Shown here one piece after another: positions 17,255-41,687 of a DNA stretch of 64,000 nt (positions are counted from its first letter, which is position 1; the number at the start of each line of letters is the position of its first letter). Source of the DNA: Eledone cirrhosa (Eukaryota); NCBI GenBank assembly GCA_964016885.1, contig OZ024741.1:282100001-282164000 (forward strand). Direction: 5' to 3'. Made by a program: the position numbers and the translations under genes. The notes beneath the pieces are model-generated. The model saw only the letters and a program-made list of their open reading frames with translations, made no database searches and was not told where the DNA came from.

Positions 17255-17299
17255 AGGGTAGTGGATTGGCAGAGTTGTGAAAACGTCGGAAAAAATCCT
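17255..17299 (+). mobile_element. SINE 5' half (continues at 41348)
   Basis: GGGTAGTGGATTGGCAGAG...GTCGGAAAAAATCCT aligns with the head of the SINE at 58911. Confidence 0.65.
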
Positions 17300-17680
17300 G
17301 GCACTACAACGCTATTAGCTGTCAGTCCAGTGGAAAACAGGCGATGGTGACGTCACTCGTCAACATCGTTTATTTCCGTATTACTACCACGCGTAAATGG
17401 AGTTTTCACGCGTTTTTTTTTTTGAGAGAGGGCAGACTTAAAAGGGCCAAATTAGAAAACAAGTCATGGTTATAAAGCATATCGATGTAAGTGGAGTTAC
17501 TTAAATGAAAATATAGGTGGCCCTTAAAAGGGCCAAATTAGAAAACAAATTTAAGTTAATTAGAAAACAAGTCATTCATAAATTTAAGTTTTATAATCAA
17601 ATTTTTTTCACCAACAAATATGACAGCTAATAGGGTTGTAGTGCCCGCAATTCTGTATCTTTACGTATATTGCGCATAGA

Positions 17681-17920
17681 TACGAGGGTTGACAAAGATA
17701 CTCTCATGGAATGTGACCAAATGAGGTTTATTTTTCAACATAGTCTCCCTTGCGTTCCACACACTTCTTCCATCGGTGTTGCAGTACTGAGATCAATATT
17801 TTCCTCGGTAGTGGCAGTTGTAGAACGTCCAGACATTGGGTCATTTTCAAGAATCCCCTATCCTTTCCTAAATTCGGCTGCCCACTTTTGCACAAAGGAA
17901 AATTGTGGTACAATATTGTA
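17681..17920 (-). mobile_element. mariner transposon 3' remnant
   Basis: Peptide ends HRWKKCVERKGDYVEK* (mariner transposase C-terminus); TACGAGGG TIR at 17681. Confidence 0.8.
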
Positions 17921-18627
17921 AGGTCTGCTTATAGCATTATCCATCTTTCAAAAATGAAGGTCCACATTTCGTCGACTTCAATACATTTTATTGTATTGTA
18001 AACATTAACTTTTATGGAAATTTTATTACAAAATTTCAATTTAGTTCGATTTTTTGGAATTTATTTAACAAACATGGAAAATAAGAAAAAGAATAAAATA
18101 AAAAATAATTTGATTGCCTTTAATAAAGAAGATAAATAGAGTGGAACTGATTTCCAGGTCATACTAATGAAACAAGGTTTTTTCCATTACTGATATTATC
18201 TGTCTGCCGCAAGTCCTGGTAGAAGATGCTACACGAACTAAAGTATTTTACTGAAGGACGCAACATGTTGCAGGATCGAAGAAACGAGCCCATGACTTTA
18301 TAATGGTTACTCCAGTACCGTAACCCCTAAGGCATGTGCCTTCACAGAGGAAAGGTAAATCATATTATAACAGATTAGATGGGTACTATGTTAGATATTA
18401 CTATGTGTCATATTATACCAAAGAGGAAGTGTGCTGTATAATAAACATTGATATCAGGTTGATTCAATTACTACCCAGTCCCAAATATGAACCCATGAAC
18501 TTATGGTCGTCAGTCAAACACTTTAACCATTGTATGTATACACGTATGGATGGATGTATGTATGTGTGTATACATGTATGTATGGATGTATGTATACATG
18601 TATATATGTAAGTATGTATGCGTGTAT

Positions 18628-21093
18628 GAGAACAACTGGAAGGACTTCAGGAGCTCGGTCTATGAGGCTTCAGCAGAGTTCCTTGGCTTTGTCACAAGAA
18701 AGCAAGGACTGGTTTGATGAGAATGACCAGGAGGTAGACAGAAAACAAAAGGCACTTGATGCAGTTCTTAAAGGTGGTAGCTCTGTTGGTGACAATTATG
18801 AGCGTTACAGACAGGTAAAGAAGGAAGTGCAGGTGAAACTCAGGGCTATGCAAAATACCTGGTGGAGCAACAAAGCAGATGAAGTTCAAGTGGCATCTGA
18901 CGGCAACAATGTGAAACTGCCGCACTTTCTACTCACAGAGGTGTATGGCCCTTTCAGCTCTCCAGTGGCCCCTTTGAGATCGAAATATGGCAAGCAATTA
19001 CTGCGCGACCCCAAAGACACTCGACAGATAGAGAGATCACTTTGATGAGCTCTTAAACCAGCCATCCCAGGTTGATGATGATTTCATTTGTTCCATTCCT
19101 ATTGAACCAGTGAAGCATATGAGATGGCTAATGTATCTTCTCTTGCAGAGGGGACTTCTGTTGTGCATAAGCTGAACTGTGGTAAGTCTCCTGGTATGGA
19201 TGGTCTGAGTGGAGCGGTTTTGAAGTGTGGTGGTGAAAACTTCACGCAGTGCCTGACTGACCTCATGAAAATGGTGTGGGAAGATGAGAATGTCCCACAA
19301 GAAGGATGCACTCATGGTGATTCTCCATAAAGGAAAGGACGGCAAGGACAAATGTGGCAATTATCATGTCATATCCCTTCTTTCAGTAGTTGGTAAAGTC
19401 GTGTCGAATATTGATGGAGAGATTGATCCCAAGAGTTGCTCTGAATGTGTTGCCTGAGTCGCAGTGTGGGTTCAGAAACGAAAGAGGAACAGTGGATATG
19501 ATCGTTTCTGCTCGGCAGCTGCAAGAAAAGTGTATCGAACAATGTATGGACCTTTACCAGGTCTTTGTTGACTTGACAAAGGCCTTTGACACTCAATCGA
19601 ACTGCGTTGTGGGAAAAAAATCCAAGGTAGGGTAGAAGATTCTGCATCTTTTCCATGATGACATAAAGGCTTTGGTCAGTATTAGTGGTAGCATCTCTGA
19701 ACCAATATAAGTTGAAAATGGAGTGAAGCAGGAGACATTCCGGCTCCAACTCTGTTTTCCTTATATTTTACGATAGTGTTTCTCATGGCATTCAAATATT
19801 GTTCTCATGGGGTTTACATCAGGTATTGCACTTCAGGAAGGTTGTTCAACACCAGGCGCTTTGGTACAAGCACAAAGGTATTAACATCTATAATCCGAGA
19901 GTTTTTGTATGCAGACGACTGCGATCTTTTTGCACACTCACAAAGTGACATGCAGCATATTATGAACTCTTTTTCTACAGCTTGCAGCACTTTGGGCATC
20001 ACAATAAGCTTGGAAAAGACTGTTGTGATGTATCAGCCAGTACCTGGAAACGAGTACACTGCACCAAGTGTGTACGTGTATGGAAAGAGGCTAAAAGTTG
20101 CTGACAAGTTTGTTTACCATGGTAGTACGTTGAACACTTCATGCACACATGATAATAAAATATCCTTAAGAATCAAGAAAGCCAGTGATGCTTTTGGACG
20201 GCTGCATCAACGTTTATGGTCCAGACGAGGTATCACTATCGAAACCAAGGTGAAAGTGTATCTGACTTGTGTCGTCTCCTCTTTACTTTATGTTTGTGAA
20301 ACGTGGGTCACATACAGAAAGCACCTCAAGGATCTGGAGAGATTTCACCAACAACCTCTTCATAAGTTACTTGGGGTGTGGTGGAAAATGTTCGCCAGTG
20401 ATTTGGAAGTTTTAGAACGGAGCAGGTGCGTCACTATAGAGAGCATAATCTTTCGGAATCGGTTGAGGTGGTGCAGTCACGTGGTCCAGATGTCTGATGA
20501 TCATATTCCAAAGCAACTTCTCTATGGAGAACTGTGTGAAGGAAGGCGACCACCACATAAACCAAAAAGGCGGTACCGGGACTGTATCAGGGGCACCTTG
20601 GCTTGTGCTGGAATTTCATCTGACGAATGGGAGAAAATGGCTGACGAGCGTGTGAAGTGGAGACGTTTGATCAAGTCAGGTGGTGAACACTTTGAAACTC
20701 GGAGAGAACACCTAACACTGAAAAGGAAGGTGAGGATTGAGATTGTTCTGAACTGCCTGCTGTTGAACATCATCTGGTTTGCCAGCACTGTGGTCGAGTC
20801 AGCCTGAGCAAAGCTGGTTTGATTAGACATGAACAAAGTCATATCAGTAGACCTCATGTAGATTATGATCTGAAAAGGTGTAAGAAATGTACAAGCATGG
20901 GAGGTCTTAAAAGATACATGTGAACATACAGCCATAACAAAGCAATGGAAGGTTTCGGGGGAGCCTAAAGTTGCCATGTGTGTGCCAGAGGGTGCAAGTA
21001 TTTGGCTGGTTTAAATAGTCACATTTGTGCTTCACATTTTTGAACATTTTATCGGGCGATGGCAATACTTGAACACGAGTTTGCAGCCATCAT
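18628..21093 (+). mobile_element. RTE/BovB-like LINE, frameshifted
   Basis: LPESQCGFR, FVDLTKAFD, YADD, RLRWCSHVVQMSDDHIPKQLLYGEL; ends GCAGCCATCAT(GTAT)n. Confidence 0.92.
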
Positions 21094-21110
21094 GTAGTAT
21101 GTATGTATGT

Positions 21111-21735
21111 CGGGTCACTCTTGAGTGCTATTGGTAACATGTAACCCAGTACAACCTGTCGCATGGTCGGGTTGTCGGCGACTAAACTGGCAACCCCACC
21201 AAGTTTACTTGGTGAGGAGGGTGATTTTGGACACCCTGCAGGACAAAAAACACCACCTGACAAAGGGCAGAAGATCTCATAAGAGTCAACGGCCATCCAA
21301 AAGTGTGTAAATATGTATATACACATGTACATATGTATGTATATGTATATGTGTATATACATGGGTGCATGTGAATGTACATGCGCGGGGACATAGAAAT
21401 AATCGGGCTGGACACCCGAACGTGCGGTTAAACCACTGGGAGTGAAGGACCCCTAGCCTTTGTCAGGGCATTCTTCTAGGAGAAGGCAACTCAGGAAACT
21501 GGGATAACTCCGATATAAAACCTGCGGCTCAGTAGTTACCGATGATGTTGATATTTTCTTCTTTTCGGGTTATAGCTACTGTCGCTCAGAGTGGGATTGG
21601 CTCAGTGCACAGTCTTTCCTCATTTAAAAAAATATCTTCATGCACAGGCATTGCACGATAGAATTAATTAATAATTATTAATAATGGTATATCGTGCAAT
21701 GGCCATACTCGATAACGAGGGGGCAGCCATCATGT
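21111..21735 (+). mobile_element. Non-autonomous RTE/BovB-dependent element (SINE-like), interrupted by a microsatellite
   Basis: Shares the 3' end ATGGC.ATACT.GA..ACGAG...GCAGCCATCATGT with the adjacent LINE; non-coding GC-richer head. Confidence 0.55.
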
Positions 21736-21929
21736 ATGCATGCATGCGTGTATGTATGTGTGTGTGTATATATATATATATATATGTGCATGTGGGTGTG
21801 TATATATATATCTCCATATACATATTTATTCAGCTGATATAGGCTGGATTGGTTGGAATATTCTGATGCAAATTCTTTCTGCTCTGTTAAATCGAAACAA
21901 ATCTTGACTTTTTATTTGAGGTTTTCTAT

Positions 21930-22575
21930 ATAAGAGACCGGGAGACCATGTTGATACTATGAAGGCCATTTGTCCTTAGCCACCTGGACTATTGCTCCCA
22001 GCTGTGGTCACCCCATAGTATCAAACTAACCACGGAACTTGAGACAATCCAACGAAGCTACACCAAGAGGATTGCACGATGAAGGAGATGAGCTACTGGG
22101 AGAGGCTAAAAGAACTGAAACTCTACTCCTTGGAACGAAGATGGGAGAGATACGCAGTGACATACATATGGAAAATCCTGGAGGGACTAGCGCCAAACTT
22201 TGGTATTGAGAGCGGGACCAACCCCCGAACAGGATGTCACTGTGTGGTGACAAAGGTCCCGTCTTCCACATCTAGAACAAGAAGCAGATATTGCAATAGA
22301 CTGGGGTTCAAAGGCCCTCAACTCTTCAACAAACTGCCGAGGGATTTGAGATATCTACATGGTGTGGCCGTGGATATTTTCAAGAAACTTCTCAACACCC
22401 TGTTATCCAGGATCCCGGATGAGCCCACATCACGGTACGAAGGTAACCTAAGGGCAGCAGCAACGAACACCCTCTTACATGAATGGCCAGCCAACACAGG
22501 CTGGAGATAGAATCTGTAGCAACAAGGGCAGTGCCCAATCATGGTCTCAGCCGGATGGCTGGAACAGCTAAAAGA
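21930..22575 (+). mobile_element. CR1/L2-group LINE 3' fragment
   Basis: LDYCSQLWSP, SYWERLKELKLYSLERRWER, GPQLFNKLP; a second copy lies at 24918-25236 on the minus strand. Confidence 0.75.
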
Positions 22576-22602
22576 GTATATATATATATTTAATATAGAA
22601 AT

Positions 22603-22654
22603 GGCTTCAACAGGACTAGAACTGTTTCATTCGGAGGAAATTATCAGAAAAGCC
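22603..22654 (-). ncRNA. Hammerhead motif, G8A core variant
   Basis: GGCUUUU-CUGAUAA-UUUC(CUCC)GAAU-GAA-ACAG(UUCUAGUC)CUGU-U-GAAGCC; homologous to 59140-59187. Confidence 0.6.
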
Positions 22655-22925
22655 GACTGTCAATGTAATATGGTGGTATTTATACATTTTCTGGTGGTAG
22701 GGGAGGGTAGTAAATTGATGCTAAGTAGACAAACACATACACACTGACAGGCACTCCTAATTTTCAAGATTCATTTATTCCAAACAAACAAAGGGTTTTC
22801 ATTGAGTGGCAATATTAAAATGTTCTGCTAAAAGATATAAATATGTGTGTGTTTGTGTATGTGTGTGTATATATATATATGTGTGTGTGTGTGTTTGTAT
22901 ATATATATGTGTGTGTGTGTTTGCG

Positions 22926-22961
<36 letters not shown>

Positions 22962-23479
22962 CAAATTTCAATAATATTAAGACACCCTAATGGGGGTTAA
23001 ACGCCCTATAGTGAAAAGTTTGGCCAATAAATGGAACAAGATTTTGCGAACTCCTCCTATGGTTTTGGAGATAGACCCCCATAGCCATATATATTCTGAA
23101 ACTACATTGCCCAGGGTACTTGTATCAGTATATTTCATTTTAATCAAAGGGTTCATCGGGGGTATAAACCCCCGCTGAAAACTTTTCCCTTTCGATTTAT
23201 ATGAAACTTAAACCATAGGTAAATGACAAGATATGATGCCTACTCACAAAAGTTTTCAATTGATATTTTGAAAAAAATTATTTACAAGAAACAAAATAAG
23301 AATAAGATTTAATAATGCAATTTTGATTTGATATATTACAAAAATTGATGTTTTCCAATTTTTCATGCATTATATTTTACATTGAGTAATATTGAGTTTT
23401 TCTCCATAAATTATATCACTGATTTAAAATCTTACAAAAAAATGTGTGAAACGCAGCAAGGCGCTGGTAATTCAGCTAG
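22962..23479 (+). mobile_element. Non-autonomous Helitron-like element (3' end)
   Basis: CAGC-AAGGC-GCTG hairpin ~10 nt before CTAG|T at 23476-23480. Confidence 0.5.
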
Positions 23480-23529
23480 TATATATGTATATGTGAGTGT
23501 GTGTATATATGTGTGTGTGTGTGCTCATA

Positions 23530-24470
23530 ATGTAGGAGAGGTGAAGGTAGAAACTCCATCCTCTGCCCCATATGCAAACTATGGGTACACAAGAGATGTA
23601 GTGGGATCTCAGGAAGTTTAGTTAAGAATGTAGGCTTTACATGTAGCAGTTGCACCAGGACAGTAATCACTGAAAACAAGTGACATCAAAGTCTGGGAGG
23701 ACTTGGTAAAAACAATACCGAATTAGCAACGGAGGGGGGTGTTCTGAAAGAACGGGATGGAAGAAGTTGAGGGAGCTATTGCCACAGCTAGATACAAAAG
23801 GCTTTTCCCTCAGAATAAAAGGTAGACTGTATGATGTGTGCATATGAACGGCAATATTGCATGGTAGTGAGAGCTGGGCGCTGTGTGTAGAAGACTTGCG
23901 TAGATTAGAAAGGAATGAAGCTTGTATGCTCCGATGGATGTGTAATAGTAATATACGCGAACAGAAAAGCATAAACAAATAAGAGGAATCAAATGTATGC
24001 AGGAGAGGAGATTATGTTGGTATGGACATGTGATTCGTATGAAGGATGACAGCTACATAAAGTCCCAGAAAGACTTGAGATGAAGTGATAAAAGCCGACC
24101 TTGCCCAATTGCACCTCTGAAAGGCAATGGCACAGGACCAAGAGCTCTGGCGTTATGAGGTAATACAGAAACCCCAACTTCCCACGGGCCCAGGCCAAGG
24201 CTGAAACATACATACAGTATGCACCACTCCATCCCACCCGCCAATATATCTTTCATGAGAACAGGCCGAAACACTGTAAAGTGGTTGTGATGGTGACACG
24301 GTAAAAAACACCCAGTACTCACTGTAAAGTAGTCGTGGAGGAATCAACAAAAAACACCCAGTACTCACTGTAAATGAGCTTGGCATTAGGAAGGGCATCC
24401 AGCTGTAGAAACAAGCCAAAATCAGTTCTTTATGAGCAAGACATGGTCACCTGACCTAACATTGCCAACA
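23530..24470 (+). mobile_element. Degenerate RTE LINE 3' part
   Basis: Collinear with 6860-7880 with deletions. Confidence 0.85.
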
Positions 24471-24473
24471 ATA

Positions 24474-24846
24474 GAAGGCACATGGCTCAGTGGTTAGAGT
24501 ATTGGGCTTGCAATTGAAAGGTTGTGAGTTTAATTCTCAGACCGGGTGATGTGTTGTTTCCTTGAGCAAGACGCTTTATTTGACATTGCACCAGTTTACT
24601 CAGCTGTAGAAATGAGATGATAGGACTGGGGTCCCTATCATTCCACTGCAAAGTGGTCGTGGAGGTGCCACGGCAAAAAAAACCAAAAAAACACCCAGCA
24701 CTCACTGTAAATGAGGTTGGTGTTAGGAAGGGCATCCAGCCAGAATCAGTTCCCGTATGAGCAAGACAAGGTCAGCCGACCGGACACTGGCCACAACAGG
24801 ACAACTCATGCTAGCGTAGAAGAACTGACATAAAATGATGATGATG
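24474..24846 (+). mobile_element. tRNA-headed SINE with RTE 3' tail (other copies on -: 25238-25605, 45434-45750, 57971-58390)
   Basis: Head TGGCTCAGTGGTTAGA (A box) and GTGAGTTTAATTC (B-box-like), joined to the RTE 3'UTR and (GAT)n tail; same junction in four copies. Confidence 0.8.
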
Positions 24847-24917
24847 AAATATAACAGAGTTTTATAGCTTGCTTGAAGCATTGATGAATAGGAAACACAA
24901 ATTTAAATTTTGAAAAC

Positions 24918-25236
24918 CAAGTTGAGGGCCTTTGAACCCCAGGCTATTGCAATAGCTGCTCCTGATTCTAGATGTGGATGACGGGACCTTTGGTACCACA
25001 CAGTGACGTCCTGTTCGAGAATTGGTCCAGCTCTCAATGCAAAAGTTTGGTCTTAGTCCCCCCAGGATTTTGCATATGTATATCATTGCATATCTCTCCC
25101 GTCTTCATTCCGAGGAGTAGAGTTTCAGTTCTTTTAGACTCTCCCAGTAGTTTATCTCCTTCATCGTGGCAACTTCATTGGATTGCTTCAAGCTCCATGG
25201 TTAGTTTGATACTATGGGGTGACCACAGCTGGGAGC
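24918..25236 (-). mobile_element. CR1/L2-group LINE fragment
   Basis: IYICKILGGLRPNFCIESWTNSRTGRHCVVPKV is homologous to ORF 22079-22510. Confidence 0.75.
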
Positions 25237-25667
25237 ATTCATCATCATTTCATTTTATGTCCACTTTTTCCCTGCTTGCAAGGGTGGGACGGGAACTGAT
25301 TCTGGCTTGATTTCTACAGCTGGATGCCCTTCCTAACACCAACCTCATTTACAGTGAGTGCTGGGTGCTTTTTTCCCGTGGCACCTCCACAACCACTTTA
25401 CAGTGTGGGATGGGTGCTTTTTTGCCGTGTCACCTCCACGACCACTTTGCAGTGGAATGATAGGGACCCCAGTCCTATCATCTCATTTCCACAGCTGAGT
25501 AAACTGGAGCAATGTGAAATAAAGTGTCTTGCTCAAGGAAACAACACATCACCCGGTGTGAGAATTGAACTCACAACCTTTCGATTGCAAGGCCAATGCT
25601 CTCAATATGTATGTATATATATATATATACACACACACATATATACACTAATATATACACACACACA

Positions 25668-25720
<53 letters not shown>

Positions 25721-25736
25721 TAATAATAATACATAT

Positions 25737-26663
25737 GAAGACTAAAATCCAAAGAGGGCTCAATAGGGATAAATATATATCAATTATATAAGAACCGTAG
25801 AGCAAATATTTATTAAAATAACAGATTAAAGTTTAAGTAAAGAATCGGCTGCTTTCACCCTTAAAGGGATCTTCTGAAACTAAAAAAAGATCAATCTGTG
25901 AACGCAGAAGTAAATATTTCGAAAAACGTTGCAACCGAAGGAAGACAGGAAGACGATACTTTGGTTCGTGGAGACGTAGTTTTAGGTATTTCTTCCTGCT
26001 TGGTACGGGTATGTTCTTTGTAGAAATATTCAGATGTTTCTGCATGATGAATATAAGTCAATAGAGTACTCAGTCAAGGGAGCCAAATAGTAATAATAAT
26101 AAATTAGAAGACTAACATCCAAAGAGGGCTCGATAAGGATAAGCATATATCAAATATATAAGAACCGTAGAGCAAATATTTATTAAAATAACAGATTAAA
26201 GTTTAAGCAAAGAATCGGCTGCTTTCATCCTTAATGGGATCTTCTGAAACTAAAAAAAAGATCAATCTGTGAACGCAGAAGTAAATATTTCGAAAAACGT
26301 TGCAACCGAAGGAAGACAGGAAGGCGATACTTTGGTTCGTGAAGACGTAGTTTTAGGTATTTCTTCCTGCTTGGTATGGGTATGTTCTTTGTAGAAATAT
26401 TCAGATGTTGTTTCTGCATGATGAATATAAGTCAATAGAGTACTCAATCAAGGGAGCCAAATAGTAATAATAATAAATTTGAAGACTAACATCCAAAGAG
26501 GGCTCGATAAGGATAAGCATATATCAAATATATAAGAACCGTAGAGCAAATATTTCTTAAAATAACAGATTAAAGTTTAAGCAAAGAATCGGCTGCTTTC
26601 ACCCTTAATGGGATCTTCTGAAACTAAAAAAAATCAATCTGTGAACGCAGAAGTAAATATTTC
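25737..26663 (-). repeat. ~370-bp tandem repeat (2.5 units), each with a hammerhead motif (25830-25881, 26200-26251, 26574-26625); retrozyme/pLTR-like
   Basis: Periods of 370 and 374 bp; minus strand AGUUU-CAGAAGA-U-CCC(5 nt)GGG-U-GAA-AGCA..UGCU-U-AAACU. Confidence 0.75.
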
Positions 26664-26789
26664 TAAGCCGACCTTTCCCAATTGCACCTCTCAAGGGCAA
26701 TGACACATGACCATGACCTCTGGCGTCACACAGTAATACAGAAGACCCGACTTTCCACAGGAACATATAGACAATATTTGTTTTCCTTT

Positions 26790-29700
26790 ATTTTTTTATG
26801 TCCTATCAACTAATCCGACCTCCAAAATGCTTGCAATTGACTATTTTTTTAGCATATTAACAACAAATATGATTTCCACTGCAATTAAAAATGACTAGCT
26901 TTGTGAATGGTTTTTCCACCCACTTTCTGCCTTCATTTTTCTACAAAGTTAATCATTGACAATAGGTTTCAAAGTTATATTCATTCATAATATGTGAAAA
27001 AAATAGTCAACTGCGAGCATTGGTGTGATGTAAATGGTAGGAGTAGGTGTTCTGTAATAAATTTACCATATGGTGAAGTATGGTTATGGTGAAGTATATG
27101 GTGTGGATTGGGGGTAGATTAATGTGCTGTGGTGTGCTTTGTTATAAGTGAGGATTTAAATTTCCACTTTAATTTATGTTAGAAAAAAATTTTTCCTTCA
27201 TTTTTGCATGTGCTATCAACTTCCAAGATGCTAGCAATTGACTATGCTTTTAGCATATTAACAAAAAATATGACTTCCGCTGCAATAAAAAATGACTAGC
27301 TTTGTAAATGCTGTTTCCACCCACATCCTCCCTCTTTTTTCTACAAAGCTAGTCATTTTCATCAGGTTTCTATGTCATAACCATTGATAATATGTGCATA
27401 AAATAGTAATTTGCAAGTACCATTTATGTCAAATTGGGTGGTAAGCACACACAAAAAAAAAAAAAAAAAAATGCCATATGAAAATTTGTCACACCAAAAT
27501 CAATAGCTTGGTGTAATGTAGTATGGTGTGGTTTGGTGAACTTTCTACAAAGATAGTCATTTTCGACAGGTTTCCATGTTATAATTATTGATATGTGAAA
27601 AAAAAAGTAAATTGGGAGCACCTTTAATGTCAGATTGGGTACACAGAAATGTCAGATTGGCACACAGAAATGTCAGATTGGCACACAGAAAAAAAAAGCA
27701 AACGGGAAAAAAATGTTTCACACCAAGATCAATAGCTTGGTGCAATGTAGTATGGTGTAACTTGGTATGGTGTGGTTTGGTTTGGTGAAATTATGAAATG
27801 AAAACCAATTGTAAACGATAGATTCCCATGTTATATTCATTGATAATGTGGGAAAATAGTCATTAGCAAGCACTTTTGATGTTAGTTTGAGGTGGTAACC
27901 ACAAAAAAAAAGAAAAAGCAGGTAGCAAATTTGTCACATTGATCTCCATACCATGGTGTAATGTAAATGGTAGGAGTAGGTGTTCTGTAATAAATTTACC
28001 ATATAGTGAAGTATGGTTATGGTGAAGTATATGGTGTGGATTGGGGTAGATTAATGTGCTGTGGTGTGCTTTGTTATAAGTGAGGATTTAAATTTCCACT
28101 TTGATTTATGTTAGAAAAAAAATTTTTCCTTCATTTTTGCATGTGCTATTAACTTCCAAGATGCTCGCAGTGGACTATGCTTTTAGCATATTAACAAAAA
28201 ATATGACTTCCGCCGCAATAAAAAATGGCTAGCTTTGTAAATGGTATTTCCACGCACATCCTCCCTCTTTTTTCTACAAAGCTAGTCATTTTCATCAGGT
28301 TTCCATGTCATAACCATTGATAATATGTGCATAAAATAGTAATTTGCGAGCACCTTTTATGTCAAATTGGGTGGTAAGCACAAAAAAAAAAAAAAATGCC
28401 TGATGAAAATTTGTCACACCAAAATCAATATCTTGGTGTGATGTAGTATGGTGTGGTTTGGTGAAGTTTCTACAAAAATAGTCATTTTCGACAGGTTTCC
28501 ATATCATTGATAAGTGGAAAAAAAAATAGTCAATTGGGAGCACCTTTAATGTCAGATTGGGTAGTAAGCACACACACAAAAAAAAGGAAACGGGAAGAAA
28601 ATGTTTCACATCAAGATCAATAGCTTGGTGCAATGTAGTATGGTGTAACTTGGTATGGTGTGATTTGGTTTGGTTTGGTGAAGTTATGAAATAGAAAACA
28701 ATTGTAAACGATAGATTCCCATGTCATATTCATTGATAATGTGTGAGAAAATAGTCATTTGCAAGCACCTTTGATGTTAGTTTGAGGTGGTAACCACAAA
28801 AAAAAAAAAAAAGCAGGTAGCAAATTTGTCACATTGATGTCCATATCATGGTGTAATGTAAATGGTAGGAGTAGGTGTTCTGCAATAAATTTACCATATA
28901 GTGTAGTATGGTTATGGTGAATTTATGGGATAGATCAATGTGCTGTGGTGTGCTTTGTTATAAGTGAGGATTTAAATTTCTACTTTGATTTATGTTAGAA
29001 AAAAATTTTTCCTTCATTTTTGCATGTGCTATCAACTTCCAAGATGCTCGCAGTGGACTATGCTTTTAGCATATTAATAAAAAATGACTAGCTTTGTAAA
29101 TGGTATTTCCACGCACATCCTCCCTCTTTTTTCTACAAAGCTAGTCATTTTCATCAGGTTTCCATGTCATAACCATTGATAATATGTGCATAAAATAGTA
29201 ATTTGCGAGCACCATTTATTTATGTCAAATTGGGTGGTAAGCACAAAAAAAAAAAAAAAAAAATGCCAGATAAAAATTTGTCACACCAAAATCAATATCT
29301 TGGTGTGATGTAGTATGGTGTGGTTTGGTGAAGTTTCTACAAAGATAGTCATTTTCGACAGGTTTCCATGTCATAATTATTGATAAGTGGAAAAAAATAG
29401 TCAATTGGGAGCACCTTTAATGTCAGATTGGGTGGTAAGCACACACACAAAAAAAAATGGAAACGGGAAGAAAATGTTTCACACCAAGATCAATAGCTTG
29501 GTGTGATGTAGTATGGTGTAACTTGGTATGGTGTGGTTTGGTTTGTGAAGTTATGAAATAGAAACGAATTGTAAACGATAGAATCCCATGTCATATTCAT
29601 TAATAATGTGTGGGAAAATAGTCATTTGCAAGCACCTTTGATGTTAGTTTGAGGTGGTAACCACAAAAAAAAAAAAATCAGGTAGCAAATTTGTCACATT

Positions 29701-31640: not shown

Positions 31641-31969
31641 AGCTTAAAGTTAAGTTTTCTACTTTCCAGGAAAAAAGTTGATCCTCTCTAACTTGAGTGG
31701 TGTGATATAGTGTGGTAAAGTATAGTGTTTCATAGTCTTGTGTGGTGTTGTCTATTGTTGTATAGTGTAGTATGGTATATTGTTTCATAGCATCGTCTGA
31801 TGTGAGGTTGTACAGTGTTTCGTAGTGTGGTGTTGGATAATGTGGTATGGTATAATGTTTGTCAGTGTGGTGTGGTATGGTATAGGTTGATATAGTGTGG
31901 CTTAGTTTGATTATAATAATACAAATAATAATAACAATAATAATAGTAATAATAATTGTTCTTCTTGTT

Positions 31970-32130
31970 CATTTTCTTTGTCTTCTTCTGTGCCTTTGTT
32001 TTCTTCTGTGCCTTTGACTGCTTCTGTGCCTTTGACTGCTTCTGTGCCTTTGACTTCTTCTGTGCCTTTGACGTCTTCTGTGCCTTTGACTTCTTCTGTG
32101 CCTTTGACTTCTTCTGTGCCTTTATCTTCT
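31970..32130. repeat. 18-bp minisatellite (CTTCTTCTGTGCCTTTGA)n
   Basis: About 8 tandem copies. Confidence 0.9.
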
Positions 32131-33009
32131 CCTCTGCCATCTAAATACTAAAAACAAAGAATGTAAAACATATATGTTGCCTATCTCTCAGATTTTACAA
32201 AGTGCTGAGGAGATAAAGTTAATTTAAAGAGCAGTGTGCTCATGCACTGTGATCCTATAATGTAGCTTATAAGCTATTTCATAACTCAAAAACAATGTCA
32301 AACATCAACAAAAGTATATACAAATATCTTTGAATGTTTAAGTTAAACCTAAATAGATCGTATCTACAGGTCATTAGGTTAGGCTGAACTAAGATCATAT
32401 CTATAAATCATTAGGTTTAGACTGAACTGAGATCATACTTTCTTCTTCTTTTCGTCATCGTCGTTTCCCGTGTCTTCTTTGTCTTTGTTCTCATATTCAT
32501 TTTAGTCGTCTTTTTCTTCTTTTCCATCTAAATATAAAAAAAATTGTAAACAAATATATAGCTGATCTCTCAGACTTTCATGAAACACCGAGGAGATACA
32601 GTTAATATAATGAGTGGGGAGCTCATATATATATATATATATGGTATAGCATGGTATTATGTGGTCTGGGGTGGTACAACATGGTGTGATGTGGTGTGCT
32701 ATGATATGGTGAGCCAGGGGAGGGAGGGACACAACGTTAGATTAATGTTAACAATACACATGTAGCAGCCACATGTGATGAGAAGGGGGAAACAGCGTTT
32801 AACTTATTTTAACATTACATGTAGCATCCATCTACAGGTGATTAAGTTAAGACTGAGGTGTAATCATATGAAAAGGTCAATTTAAAACTACACTGAGATT
32901 CTGCTTAAAATGATGGTCAATGCAGTGTTTACTTACTCAGATCCTTTGAAATAACTTTCTTTCTCTTACTGTAACTGGACATACCTACGAAATAGAAAAC
33001 AGTCGAATA

Positions 33010-33265
33010 GACAGTGGTGTGGTGTGGTGTAGTGTGGTGTAGTGGAGTGTGGTGGAGTGGGGTGTGGTTCAATGTAGGGTGGGGGATATGGTGTAGTGGA
33101 GTGTGGTGGGATGTAGTGTGGTAGCATGTAGTGTGATGGCATGTGATGTGATGTGGCGTGGTGAAATGTGATGTGATGTGATGAAATGTGGCGTGGCGTG
33201 GTGAAATGTGATGTGATGAAATGTGGCGTGGTGAAATGAGGCGAGACAAGATGAGATGAGATGTG
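33010..33265. repeat. (GTGTG/GTGAT)n pentamer arrays (also 31690-31900 and 34160-34420)
   Basis: Seen directly. Confidence 0.85.
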
Positions 33266-34805
33266 AAATTTTTTCATCCTATTTTTCATGTGTTATCAAC
33301 TAATCCAATCTCCAAGATGCTTGAAACTGACTTTTTCCCCCCAGGAAAACGGTGGGGTGAGGTGGTTCCCCCTTCACCCGGATAACCCCTGCTTACCTGG
33401 AATTTTCTCTTTGATTCTATTTTCATGCGTTATCAGTGAATATGACTATCAAACCAGTCAAAAACAACTAGCTTTGGAGAAAGAGGAGAGGGAGAGGGGA
33501 AGCGTTTTGCAGATCTACACCCCACTCACATGTTGTGGGACTTAATCATTTTCAGTATATTTCCTCTGCTATTAATTTCCTGTGCTATTTCCTGTGCTAT
33601 TTCCTATGCTATTTCCTGTGCTATTAATTAATCTGACCTCCTAGATGCTTCCAATCAACTTATTTCCCTGGGTTAGGTTTAGGGTTTAGGGTTTAGTTTT
33701 ATGGTTGGGATATAGTTTAGGGTTTAGTTTAAGGGTTGGGGTAATGTTTATATTTAGATTTAGCTTGGTTTGGTTTAGGTTTAGGGTTGGGGCTAGATTT
33801 AATTTTATGTTTAATTTAGTTTTAGTTTCCAAATCCCAGAAAAAAAAATTGATTCAGAGCAGCTAAAAGGTCAGATTAGTTGATAGCACTCAAAAGGAGA
33901 CCGAAGAAAAATCATTAGGGTATATATCTACAAAACGACAATGGTTTTTCCACCTGCTTTACCCCTCCTTTTTCCTAGAACAACTAATCATTTCCAACTG
34001 GTTTGGAGGTCATATTCGTTGATAACATGAGAAAACTCTGGGGTTAAATGAGAGAAGTGCATCCACCTAAGTTTTCCATGAAGAGAGAGTCAATAACAAA
34101 CATCTTGGAGTTCGGATTAGTTGATAACACATGAAAAAAAGATGAGGAAAAAATTTTGGGTGTTATGTGGTGTGTGTGGTGTGGAGTAGTGTGGTGTGTT
34201 TTTATGTGATGTGGTGTGTTGTGCTATGTGGTGTGGAGTAGTGTGGTGTGTTTTTATGTGGAGTAGTGAGGAGTGGTGTGTTGTGTTATAGTGAGGAGTG
34301 TGTGTTGTGTTGTGATGTTATGTGGTGTGGTGAATTGTGGTGTCATGTGGTGCGGTGTACTGCGATGTGGTGTGGTGCAGTGCGGTGTGGTGTTGTGCAG
34401 TGCGGTTTTGTGCAGTGAGGTTCTTCATCTTTATCTTTCTCTTCTTCATCTTTGTATTCATCTTCTTTGTTTTGTCTTCCATCTAATCAAAAAAAAAAAT
34501 ATATATATATATAAAACATATATGTAGCCAATCTCTCAGACTTTTACAAAGCTCCAGGGAGATAAATTTACTATAAGTGGTGTGTTCCTGAACAGAGATA
34601 CTACAAAATAGCTTAAAAGCTATATATATATATACATATATATATAAATAAATATACACGGGTGTGTATGATTGTGTATAGAAGATTATATTAATAAAAG
34701 GAATTCCAACTTTGTCTGATTTACTCGTTTTATTTACAATCCTTTAAAATTATAATGGTTTTAGAATGAAATAGTATGGTAGAATATTAAGTGTTAAGTG
34801 TTAAT

Positions 34806-34844: not shown

Positions 34845-35159
34845 TATTCTGTGGTGACAGTCAAGTTTACAATTTTCAACTGTAATGAGATGGGTAAATT
34901 TTGTGCCTTATATACAGTGAAAAGCGGCTACAGAATGCTAAATTTTGCAAACTGTATTTCGACCAATTAGTGTGTAGTTTCATTGGATTACTGAAGCTGA
35001 TTAGGCATCACGGTTGGTTGGGCATGTCTAACGACTTCTATTTGGCCCTATTCAAAGCATCAATTGTTTTAATATTTTTAGAAATGATGAAAATAGCATT
35101 TTCTAGGGTTTTTTATACCCCTAAGAATTATTATTGTTCATTTAGCTTGGGTTGGAATT

Positions 35160-35474
35160 TTGAAAAATATTCCCAAATGCAAATATGACTGCAAAAGCAG
35201 AAATCTAATTTACTGCATTAAATGCCCGAATTGTGAAGAACTATATGTCGGTCAAACTGGAAATGCACTATCGGAACGTGCACGGGTGCACCGACAGCAA
35301 ATCAGAGACCCAAATGTCCGTCAGATACCCCTGAGTAACCATCTAGCAACATGTGGTCAGAAAATATTTATAATATTTCCATTCTACAAATTACACAGGC
35401 CAAGTGAAATCAAGAGAAAAATCAAAGAAAGGAATTTTATTGATAAATTCCAACCCAAGCTAAATGAACAATAA
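35160..35474 (+). mobile_element. Penelope-like element, GIY-YIG endonuclease 3' fragment with an inverted upstream pLTR (~34660-35160)
   Basis: CKSRNLIYCIKCPNC..LYVGQTG..LSER..VH...H...E..FI....PKLN; 35097-35160 is the reverse complement of 35445-35510. Confidence 0.85.
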
Positions 35475-35910: not shown

Positions 35911-38417
35911 AGGTGAGTTTTATTGGAGTACAATAAAGCTATGCAGATATCGGATAAGTAGCACTCTACAGCTTGTAGGACTGGAGTATAAATAATATAT
36001 AAGATCAAAAGATGGTTAAAAGAGTTCCATGTATTTTATTATTTTATTATGCGCATTTCAAAAACAAATATCATCATGCAATAACATTTGCGTTTTCGTC
36101 AGATAAAATAGGGAGACATGATATGAAGGTTAAAACACACTTGTGAATAGTGCAGTTTTAAATCAACATATGAAAGTAGTTTTAGATTGATGTGATATTT
36201 GGAAAAAAAAAATTTGAGGGGGGAGGGGGAGGTTGGAAAGGATGAAAAAGAGGAGGAGATGAGAGTAAAAAGTGGAGGGGGAGGAGTATAATGAGGAAGG
36301 ATGAGATAGGAGGAGAGATGGGTGATAGAGAGAGAGAGATAGCTTTTATAACTGAGAAAAATATATTTTTTTACATAGAGAGGTTGAAAAACCGTTGGAA
36401 GATAATATATAAATTAAAAGAATTTGAAAACTAACGAAGAGAAAAATTTAGAATAATGTTAAATTAAGGTTTGTATATTTAAGCGTTTAATAATATGTGC
36501 GATGAAAAGAAATTGTTAATATGTATTAAGAATAATATTTAAGGGTTTAATAATATGTGCGATGGAAAGAAATTGTTGATATATATTATTAAAAAAATAT
36601 ATATATATAAAAATATAGCAATAGTAATGTAAGTAAAGATATATTGTGTAAGAAGTAGAAGATTGGATGAATAAGTGTAATATGTATAAGTTAGATGTGC
36701 ATGAAAGGAAGAAAAAAATAATGAATTGAGGATGAATAATCTAACGTCAAAAAAATGTTTATGTTTACGAAGGATTTTTTCAAGGTGATATAAAGTAAGA
36801 ATATATTGTGCTGTGTAATACTTGTTTCTACGTTAGGCACAATGATAATTGAGAAGTATCTAGGAAGAAAAGGTACAGATTAGGGGTTAGAAATTAAAAG
36901 AAAAAGAAAAGAAAAAAGGAAAAAAGAAAGAAAGGGAAGTGATAAATAGGAGTGATATAGAATAAGTAACTAGTATTATATAATTTATAATAAATAACAT
37001 TGAAATAAGGTAGAAAGATGGGTATATTTTTAAAGAAATATATATGTATATATATATATATGTGCCTTTGAGAAAAGGATTTTAAATTGATAAAGTATTA
37101 GATATTAACTGTATACTTTATGGAATGTTCTGTGGAATTTATGCAAGCAGAGAGAAAACAAGTCAGTGCGTCTATTTATTATAGGATCTAAATTAGATAT
37201 AATGGTAAATTTTTCACATAAACAGAGATTGCATGTCTTGGATAGAGAACTGTTCAAGTATGAAGAAGCAGAACAACCTTCTTCCAAGAGATGTTATAGT
37301 TAATATTTTTGTCTTTCAAGGACCATATAAGTTCTGTGAGTGCCGTGTTGGTTCTTTTAAGTTGGTATTTAAAAGATGAATGATGATTATAAAGACGAGC
37401 TTTAAAGGAGGTGGAAGTGGAGCCAAAATAGGTAAGGGAATTGGTGTCAGTTATAACTTTACATTCGTAGATTAAGTTTTTTTCAAGACAATGGTTGTTG
37501 AGAGGACATTTATTTTTAACAGGGCAATTGCAATTGCGATTAGAGAGATTAACAGAGTTATTAACAAGTGACCTAGTGTTATCTATAGAAGGGATTGGAT
37601 TGGAGAAGTTATTTACGATAGGAATAATAGTTTCTTGATTTAGAATGGGATAAAGAACATTTAGCGAAGTTGCGTTTGACGTTGTATTTGGGTTTGCAGA
37701 AATTAGCCTAGAGTTTACAATGACGTCCGGAGCACTATTACTATTATTATGATATTCAGTGTTGGAAGGAAGAGATTTAGTATTTAGTATTTTATTGTTG
37801 TGTTTAGAGGAGATGTTGGAGGAGGTCGAATATGAAAATTTTATAGTGTGTTTGTTAAATATTTTACTATAGATATGTGAGGGAGGGAAGCATTTATTTA
37901 AGGCACTAAAGAATAATTTAGGAATATTATTATTAATAGAGATGGAGAAAGGAGCATTATACCAGATTATGTTTTTGTATCTAGGTCTTTTATTAAAGTT
38001 ATTGGAATGATCATGATTAATTATTCTACTGTAAGATCTTCTAGAATTTGTTTCTTTACTATATTTGATTTTATCAGGATAACCGGCTTTAGAAAGCGCG
38101 TTATTATAGTAATTGGCGTTAGCATCAAAGATGTTTTTATTAGAAGATAGGTTAGATATTCTTTTTCCAATATTACTAACTATAGCATTCTTAATATTAG
38201 TGGGGTGGTTAGATTTAAAATTAACATAATTTAGGGTCTCATTGTTTTTATGGTAAGGGTAATATAGGCCAGTGTCAAGATTAAGAGATACATCCAAGAA
38301 ATTAGCTAGTTTGATGCTGTTATCAAATTCAATTTTTAAGTTATGTTGGTTAAAGAGATTACGTATATTGTTCTTAATAATATTAAGGTTAACTATGTTG
38401 CAATTTAAGATAGTAAA

Positions 38418-38421
<4 letters not shown>
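35907..38421 (-). mobile_element. Penelope-like element (RT thumb + GIY-YIG), 5'-truncated, flanked by (TA)n
   Basis: ORF 37254-38531 beyond the TA run: NFLDVSLNL, SNHP, IIWYNAPFS, CNC..CPL...C, LIYEC..YFGSTSTSFKARL.NH; frameshifted tail 37105-37287 CNLCLCEK...CLH. Confidence 0.9.
36040..36110 (-). ncRNA. Hammerhead ribozyme in the 3' end of the Penelope element
   Basis: UAUUUUAU-CUGACGA-stem II-GAA-AUGCGCAU-A-AUAAAAUA: perfect 8-bp stem I and palindromic stem III. Confidence 0.85.
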
Positions 38422-38470
<49 letters not shown>

Positions 38471-38482
<12 letters not shown>

Positions 38483-39752
38483 TGTATATATAATGTATTT
38501 TGCAATACACTTTATGCTTAATTAAAAGCATTTTGAAGACCGTATGCTATTGTTTTAGAGTAGTGACAAACTCACTTACTTTAATCTCAGCAAACAGGGA
38601 GAGATAAAGCCGACAAGGCCTTGTTTCGCATTTTTTTATGCTTATCAAGGCTAACTACTCCCTCATGTCTACTGAGATCACTGATGTTATATTCTTATAG
38701 AATTCTAGTAAATAATCAGGAACTGATTATTCAGAGCGGTTGCCGGTCAGGCAGAAATTAAAAATTAGAATTGGAGCTCTGAAATAGCAATATATATATG
38801 AATGTATATATAATGTATTTTGCAATACACTTTATGCTTAATTAAAAGCATTTTGAAGACCGTATGCTATTGTTTTAGAGTAGTGACAAACTCACTTACT
38901 TTAATCTCAGCAAACAGGGGGAGATAAAGCCGACAAGGCCTTGTTTCGCATTTTTTAATGCTTATCAAGGCTAACTACTCCCTCCTGTCTACTGAGATCA
39001 CTGATGTTGTATTCTTATAGAATTCTAGTAAATAATCAGGAACTGATCATACAGAGCGGTTGCCGGTTAGGCAGAAATTAAAAATTAGAATTGCTATTTC
39101 AGAGCTCCAATTCTAATTTTTAATTTCTGCCTGACCGGCAACCGCTCTGTATAATCAGTTCCTGATTATTTACTAGAATTCTATAAGAATATAACATCAG
39201 TGATCTCAGTAGACAGGAGGGAGTAGTTAGCCTTGATAAGCATAAAAAAATGCGAAAGAAGGCCTTGTCGGCTTTATCTCCCCCTGTTTGCTGAGATTAA
39301 AGTGAGCTTGTCACTACTCTAAAACAATAGCATACGGTCTTCAAAATGCTTTTAATTAAGCATAAAGTGTATTGCAAAATACATTATATCTACATTCATA
39401 TATATATTGCTATTTCAGAGCTCCAATTCAAATTTTTAATTTCTGCCTGACCGGCAACCGCTCTGTATAATCAGTTCCTGATTATTTACTAGAATTCTAT
39501 AAGAATATAACATCAGTGATCTCAGTAGACAGGAGGGAGTAGTTAGCCTTGATAAGCATAAAAAAATGCGAAAGAAGGCCTTGTCGGCTTTATCTCCCCC
39601 TGTTTGCTGAGATTAAAGTAAGTGAGTTTGTCACTACTCTAAAACAATAGCATACGGTCTTCAAAATGCTTTTAATTAAGCATAAAGTGTATTGCAAAAT
39701 ACATTATATATACATTCATATATATATTGCTATTTCAGAGCTCCAATTCTAA

Positions 39753-39755
<3 letters not shown>
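38471..39755. repeat. 320-bp unit in a tandem/inverted array (two direct, then two inverted), each with a U3-A8 hammerhead
   Basis: Units ~38471-38790, 38791-39092, 39091-39407(rc), 39408-39727(rc); hammerheads at 38608-38652 and 38928-38972 (-), 39229-39273 and 39545-39589 (+). Confidence 0.9.
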
Positions 39756-40329: not shown

Positions 40330-40448
40330 GCAGAAACACACACATACAATAACGACAAGTACTACGATTCTGGAGGAACGAATGATGGAGAAGATGAAAC
40401 TCTCTGCCGCAGAATAAATGGTATTTAATTTTAATAATAATACTAATA

Positions 40449-40494
<46 letters not shown>

Positions 40495-40981
40495 TAATTG
40501 AATTGATTATCATTATTGTTTTTATGGCAAAAGATAGACAGAGAGGGAAAGAGATAGACAGAGGGAAAGATCTTGTTTGACATATATATATATATATGAT
40601 AGAAAGAAGAGAAAAAGACGAGACCCTTAGAAACGAATAAGAGTCATCAAAGCTATCATATGTATTGCTTTAAACTGTAATGCTAAGGGATACACTAGTA
40701 TTTGAGGTACCATCATTTGGGATTTTAACCCTCGGACTTTTCCCTCCCGGTTTTGAAATTTAGGGAAAATTTAGGGGTGACTGGGAATATTACATAATGT
40801 AGGGATTTTCTTTTCCTTTTCTATCATTTCTTATTTATGTATTTATATATTTATTTATCTACTCTCGTGATTGATATTCCGACAAATGTTAGGGGTGTAT
40901 TTTGGTTTTTTATTATGTCAGGTATAGCATCCAAAAATTTCTCCCTTCCCCCAATATATATATATATATATATATATACAA

Positions 40982-41062
40982 ACACAATGTCCCAAAAAAT
41001 GTATACACACTTCAACAGCAAAGTAATCAAAGTGTGTATATATTTTGGAGGAGACACCGTGT
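40982..41062. mobile_element. Tiny Tc1/mariner-type MITE
   Basis: ACACAATGTCCCAAAAAATGTATACACACTT ... AAGTGTGTATATATTTTGGAGGAGACACCGTGT imperfect TIRs within TA repeats. Confidence 0.55.
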
Positions 41063-41063
41063 G

Positions 41064-41096
<33 letters not shown>

Positions 41097-41347
41097 ATGT
41101 GTAACTAGTAAAACTGTAAAAACGCAGCGGTATATTCTAATTTGGCCCTTTGAAGGGCCACCTATATTTTCATTTAAGTAACTCCACTTACATCTATATG
41201 CTTTAATAAAAAATAAATAAAAAACGCGTGAAAAAAAAAAAAATTTAAATTTAAGTAACTCTACTTACGCGTGGTAGTAATACGGAAATAAACGATGTTT
41301 TGCTTTCATCGGCTGCTTCGACTGACAGCTAATAGCGTTGTAGTGCC

Positions 41348-41687
41348 AAAATCCTTTACAGCAGGCATGTCAAACATGCGACCCGCACAAGGTTTTTACA
41401 GCGCATGTATGTTTTATCTTCGTAAAATTAGTTGTAATGTACGCAATTAGTTGTCGTGTATGGCCCTCAGACAACATACATGTGACCCATGTGGTCCTCA
41501 GTTTCACATCCCTGCTTTACAGTATTTTGCTTACGGCTCTCTAACTTCTGAGTCCATATCGCACTGGAGTCAATTCTGACTTGCATCCTTCCAAGGGGCG
41601 ATAAAGAGTGCCAGCTAAGTATTGGGATCTAAAATAATAATTTTAAAAAAATGCGGGCTTTGTGCTTAAATTAGATACCAATTATTT
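41348..41687 (+). mobile_element. SINE 3' half (continuation of 17255-17299), itself interrupted by a hAT MITE
   Basis: TTACAGTATTTTGC..CTTCTGAGTCC..TGCATCCTT..GATAAA..GCCAG..CTTTGTGCTTAAATTAGATACC matches the SINE body and tail. Confidence 0.7.
41362..41514. mobile_element. hAT-type MITE with 8-bp TSD CTTTACAG
   Basis: CAGGCATGTCAAAC...GTTTCACATCCCTG; CTTTACAG at 41354-41361 and 41515-41522. Confidence 0.85.

Follow-up and report, generated by a model that had tools for sequence, protein, structure and literature searches.

The 24-kb element at 17292..41355 (duplications included) is very probably one transposase-less copy of a family of 17–50 kb Merlin-type DNA transposons, likely of composite build and likely moved as a block. 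It lies in a stretch of 64,000 nt of Eledone cirrhosa (GCA_964016885.1, contig OZ024741.1, positions 282,100,001–282,164,000, forward strand), referred to here as the window, which contains no N. The element and its family are best read as a composite (macro)transposon: host DNA rich in repeats was captured, and a single past burst spread it. The start of the family, its left junction, is found at more than 100 places in the genome. Beyond what the first-pass annotation had described, the element has a third, inner terminal inverted repeat (TIR) at 17621–17645 and a histone 3'-end signal in both ends.

Outer ends and the interrupted SINE

The borders of the element and their surroundings are as follows.

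17255..17291 (+): 5' part of an old SINE, interrupted by the insertion; other SINE copies align on across the in-script junction
17292..17299 (+): left target-site duplication (TSD) AAAATCCT
17300..17327 (+): outer left TIR, 28 bp, GG start
41135..41347 (-): Merlin right end, 213 bp
41320..41347 (-): outer right TIR, 28 bp
41348..41355 (+): right TSD AAAATCCT
41362..41514 (unstranded): separate MITE, 153 bp, outside the Merlin, presumably hAT-like from its CAG ends and 8-bp duplication CTTTACAG
41523..41626 (+): 3' part of the split SINE

The outer ends proposed in the first-pass annotation are borne out. The 28-bp TIRs at 17300–17327 and 41320–41347 are identical (0 matches expected from 100 shuffles), and inverted similarity extends over 17299–17543 versus 41135–41348 at 71% with gaps. 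The direct repeat AAAATCCT is present at both outer borders, where a random pair of flank 8-mers matches at 1.9e-4. Removal of the Merlin and the MITE was said to restore one continuous SINE, and when both are excised in script three other SINE copies, among 38 matches and with 67–72% identity, indeed span the junction. One of these alignments scores 117, whereas the two halves by themselves reach 45 and 74 and none of 300 controls exceeds 82. The MITE itself is confirmed by its CTTTACAG duplication and by pairing of 12 of 14 terminal bases. The two duplications overlap by two bases and either order of insertion fits. When the left junction was compared with contigs of three read runs and one RAD run, other copies dominated, and neither an empty allele nor a bridge was seen.

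Assignment to Merlin and the transposase

In the available part of PMC8101967, Merlin elements are defined by TIRs of 24–462 bp with a 5'-GG start and TSDs of 8–9 bp. The TIR here is 28 bp long and begins with GGCAC, and the window copy has an 8-bp TSD; 43 pairs of ends in the family yield 20 exact 8-bp TSDs and one of 9 bp. The family is assigned to Merlin because the transposase of sister giants, encoded between the same TIRs, is of the DDE_Tnp_IS1595 type, in line with the earlier label 'Merlin/IS1016-like'. Open frames of 301–303 aa are present inside two giants, at C3:15.91 Mb and C3:18.18 Mb. The family transposase matches PF12762 (E values of 5e-18 and 7e-19) and contains Asp151, Asp212 and Glu249, which we take to be the residues of the DDE motif. 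The nearest named relatives are Octopus ISXO2-like proteins (63–85%). A short element of 2.2 kb with the same TIR also carries the transposase.

No transposase had been visible inside the window copy on first inspection, and none is found there by tblastn at E 1 or by Pfam (DDE_Tnp_IS1595 in 0 of 49 ORFs). 'Non-autonomous' is thus correct for this copy, but not for the family as a whole, as sister giants encode the transposase.

Copies across the genome

Exact TIR matches of 25 bp number 385 (control, 0). In 11 of 13 candidate regions we find TSD-flanked elements of 17.2–48.2 kb that are colinear with the window copy; one of these 11 TSDs lies within a TA run and is uninformative. The other two regions hold an element without a TSD and a short element. 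Since the interior has the same order in 11 of 13 regions, the element did not swell in place. A further 30 pairs show an 8-bp TSD in 12 cases (nine exact, three with one mismatch) and a 9-bp match by eye in one. The remaining 17 lack a TSD: three share flanks (C2:164 Mb, segmental), three have a second TIR inside the left TIR, three are without one outer TIR in the fetched stretch and eight are unexplained. The TSDs of the family are varied and AT-rich, and homology between copies ends at the TIR.

On C1–C3, an oriented right end lies 12–113 kb (median 31 kb) from 53 of the 84 left anchors, whereas chance pairing per left anchor is 0.26% for a 70-kb span. None of these 53 pairs is shorter than 10 kb, and 31 of the 84 anchors have no exact right end within 120 kb. 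Of the interior of the window copy, 95% recurs in one or more of the 11 other full copies and 76% in six or more. Private insertions occur in some other copies and multi-kb losses in others, including a 17-kb copy.

Clean shared segments differ by 2.1–2.9% on average between pairs of copies, with 0.8% for the closest pair. The unrooted tree, built from 2054 columns and the 18 of 34 candidates that passed a coverage filter, is star-like at 2–3%. Evenly spaced copies that resemble segmental duplicates are seen on C5 and C211 (four each) and at C3:252 Mb, and 119 junctions therefore overstate the number of independent jumps. The search with core-piece DNA scored 40 of 952 candidates and so gives no copy number. 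No look-alikes were found in the other genomes searched. The family is likely to be quiet at present.

Contents of the interior

From left to right, the interior holds the following cargo, in which A and B denote two subfamilies.

17646..22960 (unstranded): subfamily A-specific cargo, 5.3 kb; 8 of the 11 other full copies match probes at 17646 and 19000
18527–20807 (+): broken LINE with RVT_1 (Pfam), within the A cargo
22043–22510: second LINE 3' fragment, within the A cargo, presumably CR1-like
22844–22960: microsatellite, end of the A cargo
22961..26700 (unstranded): core cargo common to subfamilies A and B, with an RTE-type LINE, SINE pieces and a tandem repeat
23522–24474: decayed RTE-type LINE, in the core cargo
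25718–26663: 374-bp tandem repeat, in the core cargo
26700..30260 (unstranded): satellite, unit ~900 bp, ~4 copies; unit number varies between element copies
30350..34420 (+): G+T-rich degenerate simple repeats (TTAGTG-, GTGGT- and TTAGGT-like) with spacers; 10 of 11 copies match a probe at 32400
35097..35474 (+): GIY-YIG portion of a Penelope-type element; 6 of 11 copies match the probe
36676..38546 (-): fragment without a Pfam match, which we take to be of Penelope type; in few copies
38470..39755 (unstranded): palindromic array of ~320-bp Penelope-type terminal repeats with four hammerhead-like folds; probe in 0 of 11 other full copies
40582..41134 (unstranded): cargo adjoining the A-type right end

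The LINE (RVT_1), the Penelope-type GIY-YIG fragment and the ~900-bp satellite agree with the contents first proposed. The 'hammerhead arrays' of that proposal fare less well: Rfam gives no hammerhead at the gathering score or at E ≤ 1, its sole family being Histone3. A loose descriptor picks up one hammerhead-like fold, its core non-canonical, four times within 38648–39549, and two single matches besides, against 0–3 matches in 20 shuffles. The fragment at 36676..38546 is either a later insertion here or was lost from other copies.

We searched 73 unspliced ORFs of at least 70–80 aa, taken from the window copy, a B copy and a single transposase locus. Above the Pfam cut-off they contain retroelement and transposase domains only and no host-gene domain; CxC5, DUF1182 and DUF7241 appear below it. 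Replication, viral or intact cargo genes such as mark Mavericks, Teratorn or Starships are not found among them.

The RTE relic differs by 16–17% from other family members in sister elements and by ~30% from copies elsewhere in the window, while between giants it differs by 2–4%. Judged by these divergences, the cargo relics are far older than the spread of the family.

Probable composite architecture

Three features of the left end bear on how the element is built.

17300..17645 (+): mini-Merlin, 346 bp, equal to the left end (outer TIR, subterminal repeats, inner TIR)
17364..17396 (+): 33-bp subterminal motif, candidate transposase site; at both outer ends, without a copy behind the inner TIR
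17621..17645 (-): inner TIR, 25 bp, one mismatch; third TIR of the element

Segment 17300–17575 is common to this copy and the transposase-bearing copies. The 33-bp motif occurs only at 17364 (+) and 41297 (-). The inner TIR has 95–98 matches in the genome, and 46 of 49 contexts run into the same cargo start; none of the 49 is a solo 346-bp mini-Merlin with its own TSD. The junction expected of a pre-capture source, a mini-Merlin with its own duplication, has 0 matches, and by coordinates all 99 cargo-start matches lie beside known family ends. At three loci (L077, L162 and L173) the inner TIR is still within Merlin sequence. These may be intermediates of the build, and they do not fix the order of A and B.

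Two types of left end exist, A consisting of the mini-Merlin plus 5.3 kb and B of the transposase gene, and there are likewise two types of right end. The B-type right end is a mini-Merlin without its inner tip. In the 12 full copies the combinations are A–A (seven), A–B (two) and B–B (three). Mean differences in the tree are 2.3% for A–A, 2.7% for B–B and 2.5% for A–B, and two sites mark six of seven B copies and none of ten A copies in this unrooted set. Host-derived DNA lies between the ends of two elements, with a complete mini-Merlin on the left and relics that predate the spread, and the genomic evidence is of movement as a unit, with TSDs outside the outer ends.

It is likely that small Merlin elements, either separate or rearranged, contributed ends on both sides of a block of old, repeat-rich host DNA, and that ends and enclosed block were then mobilised as one unit by sister-encoded transposase. 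This would be cut-and-paste in trans, with copies gained via replication or gap repair and with deletions and end swapping. The inner TIR is predicted to be a poor end because it is without the subterminal motif of the outer ends, so that the 24 kb would move whole rather than the 346-bp mini-Merlin.

Alternative explanations

The first-pass annotation left two readings side by side, and the giant cargo carrier is the one that stands. The other, in which a small Merlin landed in the SINE and then grew there as LINE, Penelope and satellite sequences nested within it, suits an interior composed of TE relics and the private insertions in other copies, and such growth can be accepted for a minor part only (~35.6–40.5 kb of the window, rare or private among the 11 copies). 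However, most other copies hold the same relics in the same order and 2–3% apart, the relics predate the spread and no left–right pair falls below 10 kb (0 of 53). Nested junctions common to unlinked sites refute inflation as the main cause, which we find barely conceivable. It is also highly improbable that segmental duplication or faulty assembly produced the copies, with Merlin ends included by chance. Shared flanks or even spacing at C2:164 Mb (three copies), C5 and C211 (four each) and the missing TSDs in 17 of 30 pairs would agree with this, but the 20 exact 8-bp TSDs in 43 pairs all differ, homology stops at the TIR, the window SINE is cut exactly at the TSD, copies are 2–3% apart and the window has no N.

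Persistence of a ~20-kb interior in many copies despite its size might indicate that some function of the cargo (a gene, an RNA or satellite drive) led to its retention and spread, in the manner of Starships or Mavericks. The 73 ORFs nevertheless offer only retroelement and transposase domains plus three sub-cut-off matches, Rfam gives Histone3 alone, and multi-kb pieces are lost freely, as in the 17-kb copy. We consider a functional cargo very unlikely and retain the composite macrotransposon.

Histone H4 3'-end copies

Each end of the element holds a copy of a host histone sequence.

17499..17534 (-): histone H4 3'-end copy (stem-loop and 20 nt), 35 of 36 bases; reaches the gathering score of Rfam Histone3
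41144..41179 (+): second histone H4 3'-end copy, 34 of 36 bases

This captured 3' end, kept at both ends, is a putative binding site or RNA end signal. A family copy lies within 30 kb of three of 30 histone loci (0.1 expected); counted from the other side, three of 119 A-type junctions fall inside that distance. We reject a target-specific transposon: the proximity is enrichment, not specificity, and TSDs are varied. A search with the CENP-T_C family as a stand-in for H4 gave no match, and neither did its controls.

Whether the Merlin lineage co-opted the H4 mRNA 3'-end signal is doubtful. The 36-bp copy is in sense orientation 137 nt past the transposase stop in two open-frame copies; 28 of 30 transposase loci retain it, as does a relative ~19% diverged. 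Against co-option, an AATAAA at +71 precedes the stem-loop, the motif has the symmetric placement at the two ends that an ordinary binding repeat would show, and two other relatives are without it. If co-option were true, the transposase mRNA would end like a histone message and be confined to S phase, when cut-and-paste gives extra copies; alternatively, the element would be tethered to histone loci. Either would explain the wide spread of a 25–30 kb DNA transposon.

Significance

A block of 25–30 kb appears to have reached more than 100 sites, by rough arithmetic ~3 Mb or more in total, through the action of an ordinary Merlin transposase of 302 aa. PMC6431247, which reviews giant eukaryotic transposons, states that cut-and-paste transposition drops sharply above ~6 kb of cargo, and lists DNA elements >20 kb as virus-related or rolling-circle; the efficiency of giant Merlin spread is therefore unexplained. 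Satellites and old LINE relics would have been duplicated in bulk, and repeat annotators would score many separate insertions. The family is a natural test of the end sequences needed by a Merlin transposase, with two outer ends used and the inner TIR ignored. It is also a candidate large-cargo vector, and allows a possible connection between a DNA transposon and the processing of histone mRNA to be put to the test.

Comparison with known systems

The element resembles the Merlin superfamily, as described in the available part of PMC8101967, in its GG TIRs, 8-bp TSD, ~300-aa DDE_Tnp_IS1595 transposase and internal tandem repeats, which Merlin elements are there suggested to spread. It is unlike known Merlin in size, with a median of 31 kb compared with largest coordinates in the Repbase Merlin table of at least 10.3 kb (Merlin-1_DR) and 13.7 kb (Merlin-2_DR), a comparison that covers part 1 of supplement file 5 of PMC8101967, other supplements of which may list longer elements. 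Composite ends, a third TIR, captured host relics and the histone 3'-end copy set it further apart; the word 'composite' does not occur in PMC8101967. A literature search mostly limited to sources other than subscription journals and Repbase Reports, and to the parts of them available, turned up neither a Merlin >14 kb nor any transposon carrying a histone 3' end.

Merlin is absent among the giants treated in the available part of PMC6431247. Teratorn and Mavericks share the size class of >20 kb, and Teratorn also has internal TIRs (same part of PMC6431247), but viral or replication genes were not found here in 73 ORFs. Pack-MULEs, in the partial accounts available, likewise move captured DNA in trans, although they are mostly 1–2 kb whereas the present family is 17–50 kb.

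Bacterial composite transposons of the Tn5/Tn10 type have an element–cargo–element build with weakened inner ends. The family shares this build and has a transposase family in common with IS1595; unlike theirs, its cargo consists of TE relics and satellite rather than selected genes, and its host is eukaryotic. A further likeness is to the maize Ac/Ds macrotransposons, in which, according to PMC9910405, host DNA is mobilised by the ends of separate elements on either side of it; there, a unit of 28 kb leaves an 8-bp footprint on excision, and one of 10.3 kb gains a copy. Those are single experimental alleles moved by a hAT transposase, whereas here a Merlin forms a dispersed family with more than 100 junctions and two subfamilies.

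Element ends and the split SINE

The TIR is perfect over 28 bp at both ends of the window element, at 17300 and 41347 (28 identical inverted bases), and no chance match to it was obtained in 100 shuffles. The subterminal inverted similarity proposed in the first-pass annotation extends over about 245 bp (gapped, 71%), and the duplication AAAATCCT flanks the element on both outer sides. The right end is followed by a MITE of 153 bp with its own duplication, CTTTACAG. Once both insertions are removed in script the SINE becomes continuous, as had been claimed: three SINE copies among 38 matches span the junction (67-72%), one of them reaching a score of 117 compared with at most 82 across 300 controls. 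Further features of the window are as follows.

6484-10249, 51435-53674, 54877-56726 and 60997-63704, both strands: long LINE copies, 72-96% alike
16699-16967: foldback MITE-like piece with inverted arms (88%) and a short CCCTAA run in its middle
17495-17539: Histone3 match in Rfam
17621-17645, minus strand: third (inner) copy of the TIR, one mismatch
23.5-24.5 kb: decayed RTE piece

Arms resembling those of the foldback piece adjoin Merlin copies at two separately examined loci, L075 and L099.

The family and its cargo

The window element very probably belongs, as a genuine non-autonomous member, to a family of giant composite Merlins, which varies on an already known type of element. Exact 25-bp TIR matches number 385 in the genome. 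Of 13 candidate regions examined whole, 11 contain elements of 17.2-48.2 kb with exact 8-bp TSDs (one uninformative); the remaining two were a region without a duplication and a 2.2-kb element. Among 30 further end pairs the 8-bp duplications are exact in nine and near-exact in three; one more pair shows a 9-bp match, judged by eye, and the other 17 lack a duplication. Of the 84 left anchors that lie on the three largest contigs, 53 are matched by an oriented right end at 12-113 kb (median 31 kb), and none of the 84 forms a left-right pair closer than 10 kb.

The first-pass annotation had left open whether this is a giant cargo carrier or a small element inflated by nested insertions. The window interior is common to at least one of 11 other full copies over 95% of its length and to at least six over 76%; the shared parts are colinear, and one alignment can cover as much as 6 kb. 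Probes across 17.6-35.3 kb are present in 5-10 of the 11 copies, and those across 35.6-40.2 kb in 0-3, so that only the latter stretch reflects later insertion or loss. The interior thus moves with the ends, which favours the cargo carrier over nested growth except at 35.6-40.2 kb. Private LTR-retrotransposon-like insertions of 4-5 kb occur in single giants at L031 (5.55 Mb on contig C1) and L042 (C1:84.92 Mb).

Clean segments differ between copies by 2.1-2.9% on average (0.8% in the closest pair) and their tree is star-like; the spread of the giants is, judging from their sequences, one past burst. Compared with other family members that sit as insertions in sister elements, the RTE piece is 16-17% divergent; against its copies in other parts of the window the figure is about 30%. 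Its divergence far exceeds that between the giants, and we therefore infer that the captured cargo was genomic DNA of already considerable age. The genome search returned no source locus.

As annotated, the interior of the window copy lacks a transposase and contains LINE, Penelope-type and satellite pieces. The hammerhead arrays fared less well: they are unrecognised by Rfam and reduce to four copies of one non-canonical fold. Pfam analysis of 73 unspliced ORFs from the window copy, one copy of subfamily B (which carries a transposase gene) and one transposase locus returned retroelement and transposase domains only, besides three matches below the cut-off.

Composite ends

In subfamily A, the type of the window copy, a mini-Merlin of 346 bp forms the left end, and 5.3 kb of additional cargo comes next. 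Subfamily B enters the shared core at a microsatellite near 22950 and has a different, shorter right end at about 40170. The end combinations in 12 full copies are A-A in seven, A-B in two and B-B in three. The inner side of the inner TIR gave 98 matches and its junction with the cargo gave 95; in 46 of 49 contexts the same cargo start is joined and in three the TIR lies within further Merlin sequence, with no solo mini-Merlin with a duplication among the 49. A hand-compiled union of three genome searches puts this A-type junction at 119 sites, some of which are segmental duplicates.

The inner TIR lacks a 33-bp motif that stands at both outer ends; it may therefore be a poor end, which would force the long unit between the outer ends to jump. 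At three loci (L107:9630-9720, L119:6800-6890 and L141:880-970) the left TIR, minus its last 4 bases, stands head-to-head with a new intact TIR. Either the family has inserted into one of its own ends or two ends have been joined directly; on the first view, with the new TIR entering 4 bases inside the old one, the family keeps recruiting ends.

Copies at C5:12.47-13.03 Mb, C2:164.2-164.4 Mb, C3:252.5-253.0 Mb and on C211 are regularly spaced or have flanks in common, and they likely arose by tandem segmental duplication of a stretch containing the element. At C1:326315500-326333100 (L069, L070, L094, L095) a 2.2-kb Merlin and its flanks occur twice, 16.6 kb apart, in a region with an N gap; this is a tandem duplication or an assembly repeat.

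Transposase

A DDE_Tnp_IS1595 gene with the same TIR, which had been suggested as a search target, is found just inside the left end in three full copies out of 11, those of subfamily B; a 2.2-kb short element bears this TIR as well. The genome search gave 127 transposase matches, and from 14 of 30 loci examined the cargo of the giants continues. In two of these 14 the frame is open, over 301 codons in one and 303 in the other. The 302-amino-acid product contains Asp151, Asp212 and Glu249, and its nearest named relatives are Octopus proteins (63-85%). TIR, TSD and domain all fit the Merlin definition in the relevant sections of PMC8101967, in line with the original assignment. Matches at 34-49% identity represent other Merlin families, many with open frames of 325-350 amino acids. 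Palindromic Merlins of roughly 3 kb, in which left end and transposase are each present twice, occur at L078, L082/L087, L084/L091 and L119.

Histone H4 3'-end signal

A 36-base motif at both element ends matches the 3' ends of H4 genes of the same genome at 35 positions (left) and 34 (right). Of the 30 transposase loci, 28 contain it, for a total of 59 occurrences that carry 1-3 mismatches. A relative at about 19% divergence has it three times, but two other relatives lack it. In two open-frame copies it lies in sense 137 nt past the transposase stop, with AATAAA earlier, at +71.

The A junction lies within 30 kb at three of 30 histone loci versus 0.097 expected (P = 1.4e-4). In cluster regions, some picked for known ends, a B giant follows an H3 stem-loop at about 80 bp, an H3 gene has a Merlin of 1 kb at a distance of 1 kb, and ends of related families are also present. 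Several histone clusters, including both examined on C14, have no ends, and neither an H3 nor an H4 gene is seen in the window. The analysis covered sequence identity and enrichment near histone loci; any function of the motif is putative.

At C7:79692000-79760000 (L190-L192, L207-L211) one giant copy is broken into permuted pieces that lie among histone genes, its right and left TIRs facing outward 20 kb apart with one 8-bp duplication in common between them. A single histone cluster at C2:321541000-321600000 (L133, L134, L205, L219-L221) contains both an A giant and a B giant, with 5.7 kb between them.

Comparison with known elements

No description of this Merlin family turned up in our literature search. 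Among the Merlin entries examined in the Repbase table of PMC8101967, the largest coordinates are 10.3 and 13.7 kb. The giant-transposon review PMC6431247, in its pertinent sections, includes no Merlin among the giants and describes a drop in efficiency above 6 kb, and in the repeat sections of the Octopus vulgaris paper PMC13282606 Merlin appears only as a table row. The closest mechanism, as outlined in the corresponding part of PMC9910405, is that of the maize Ac macrotransposon.
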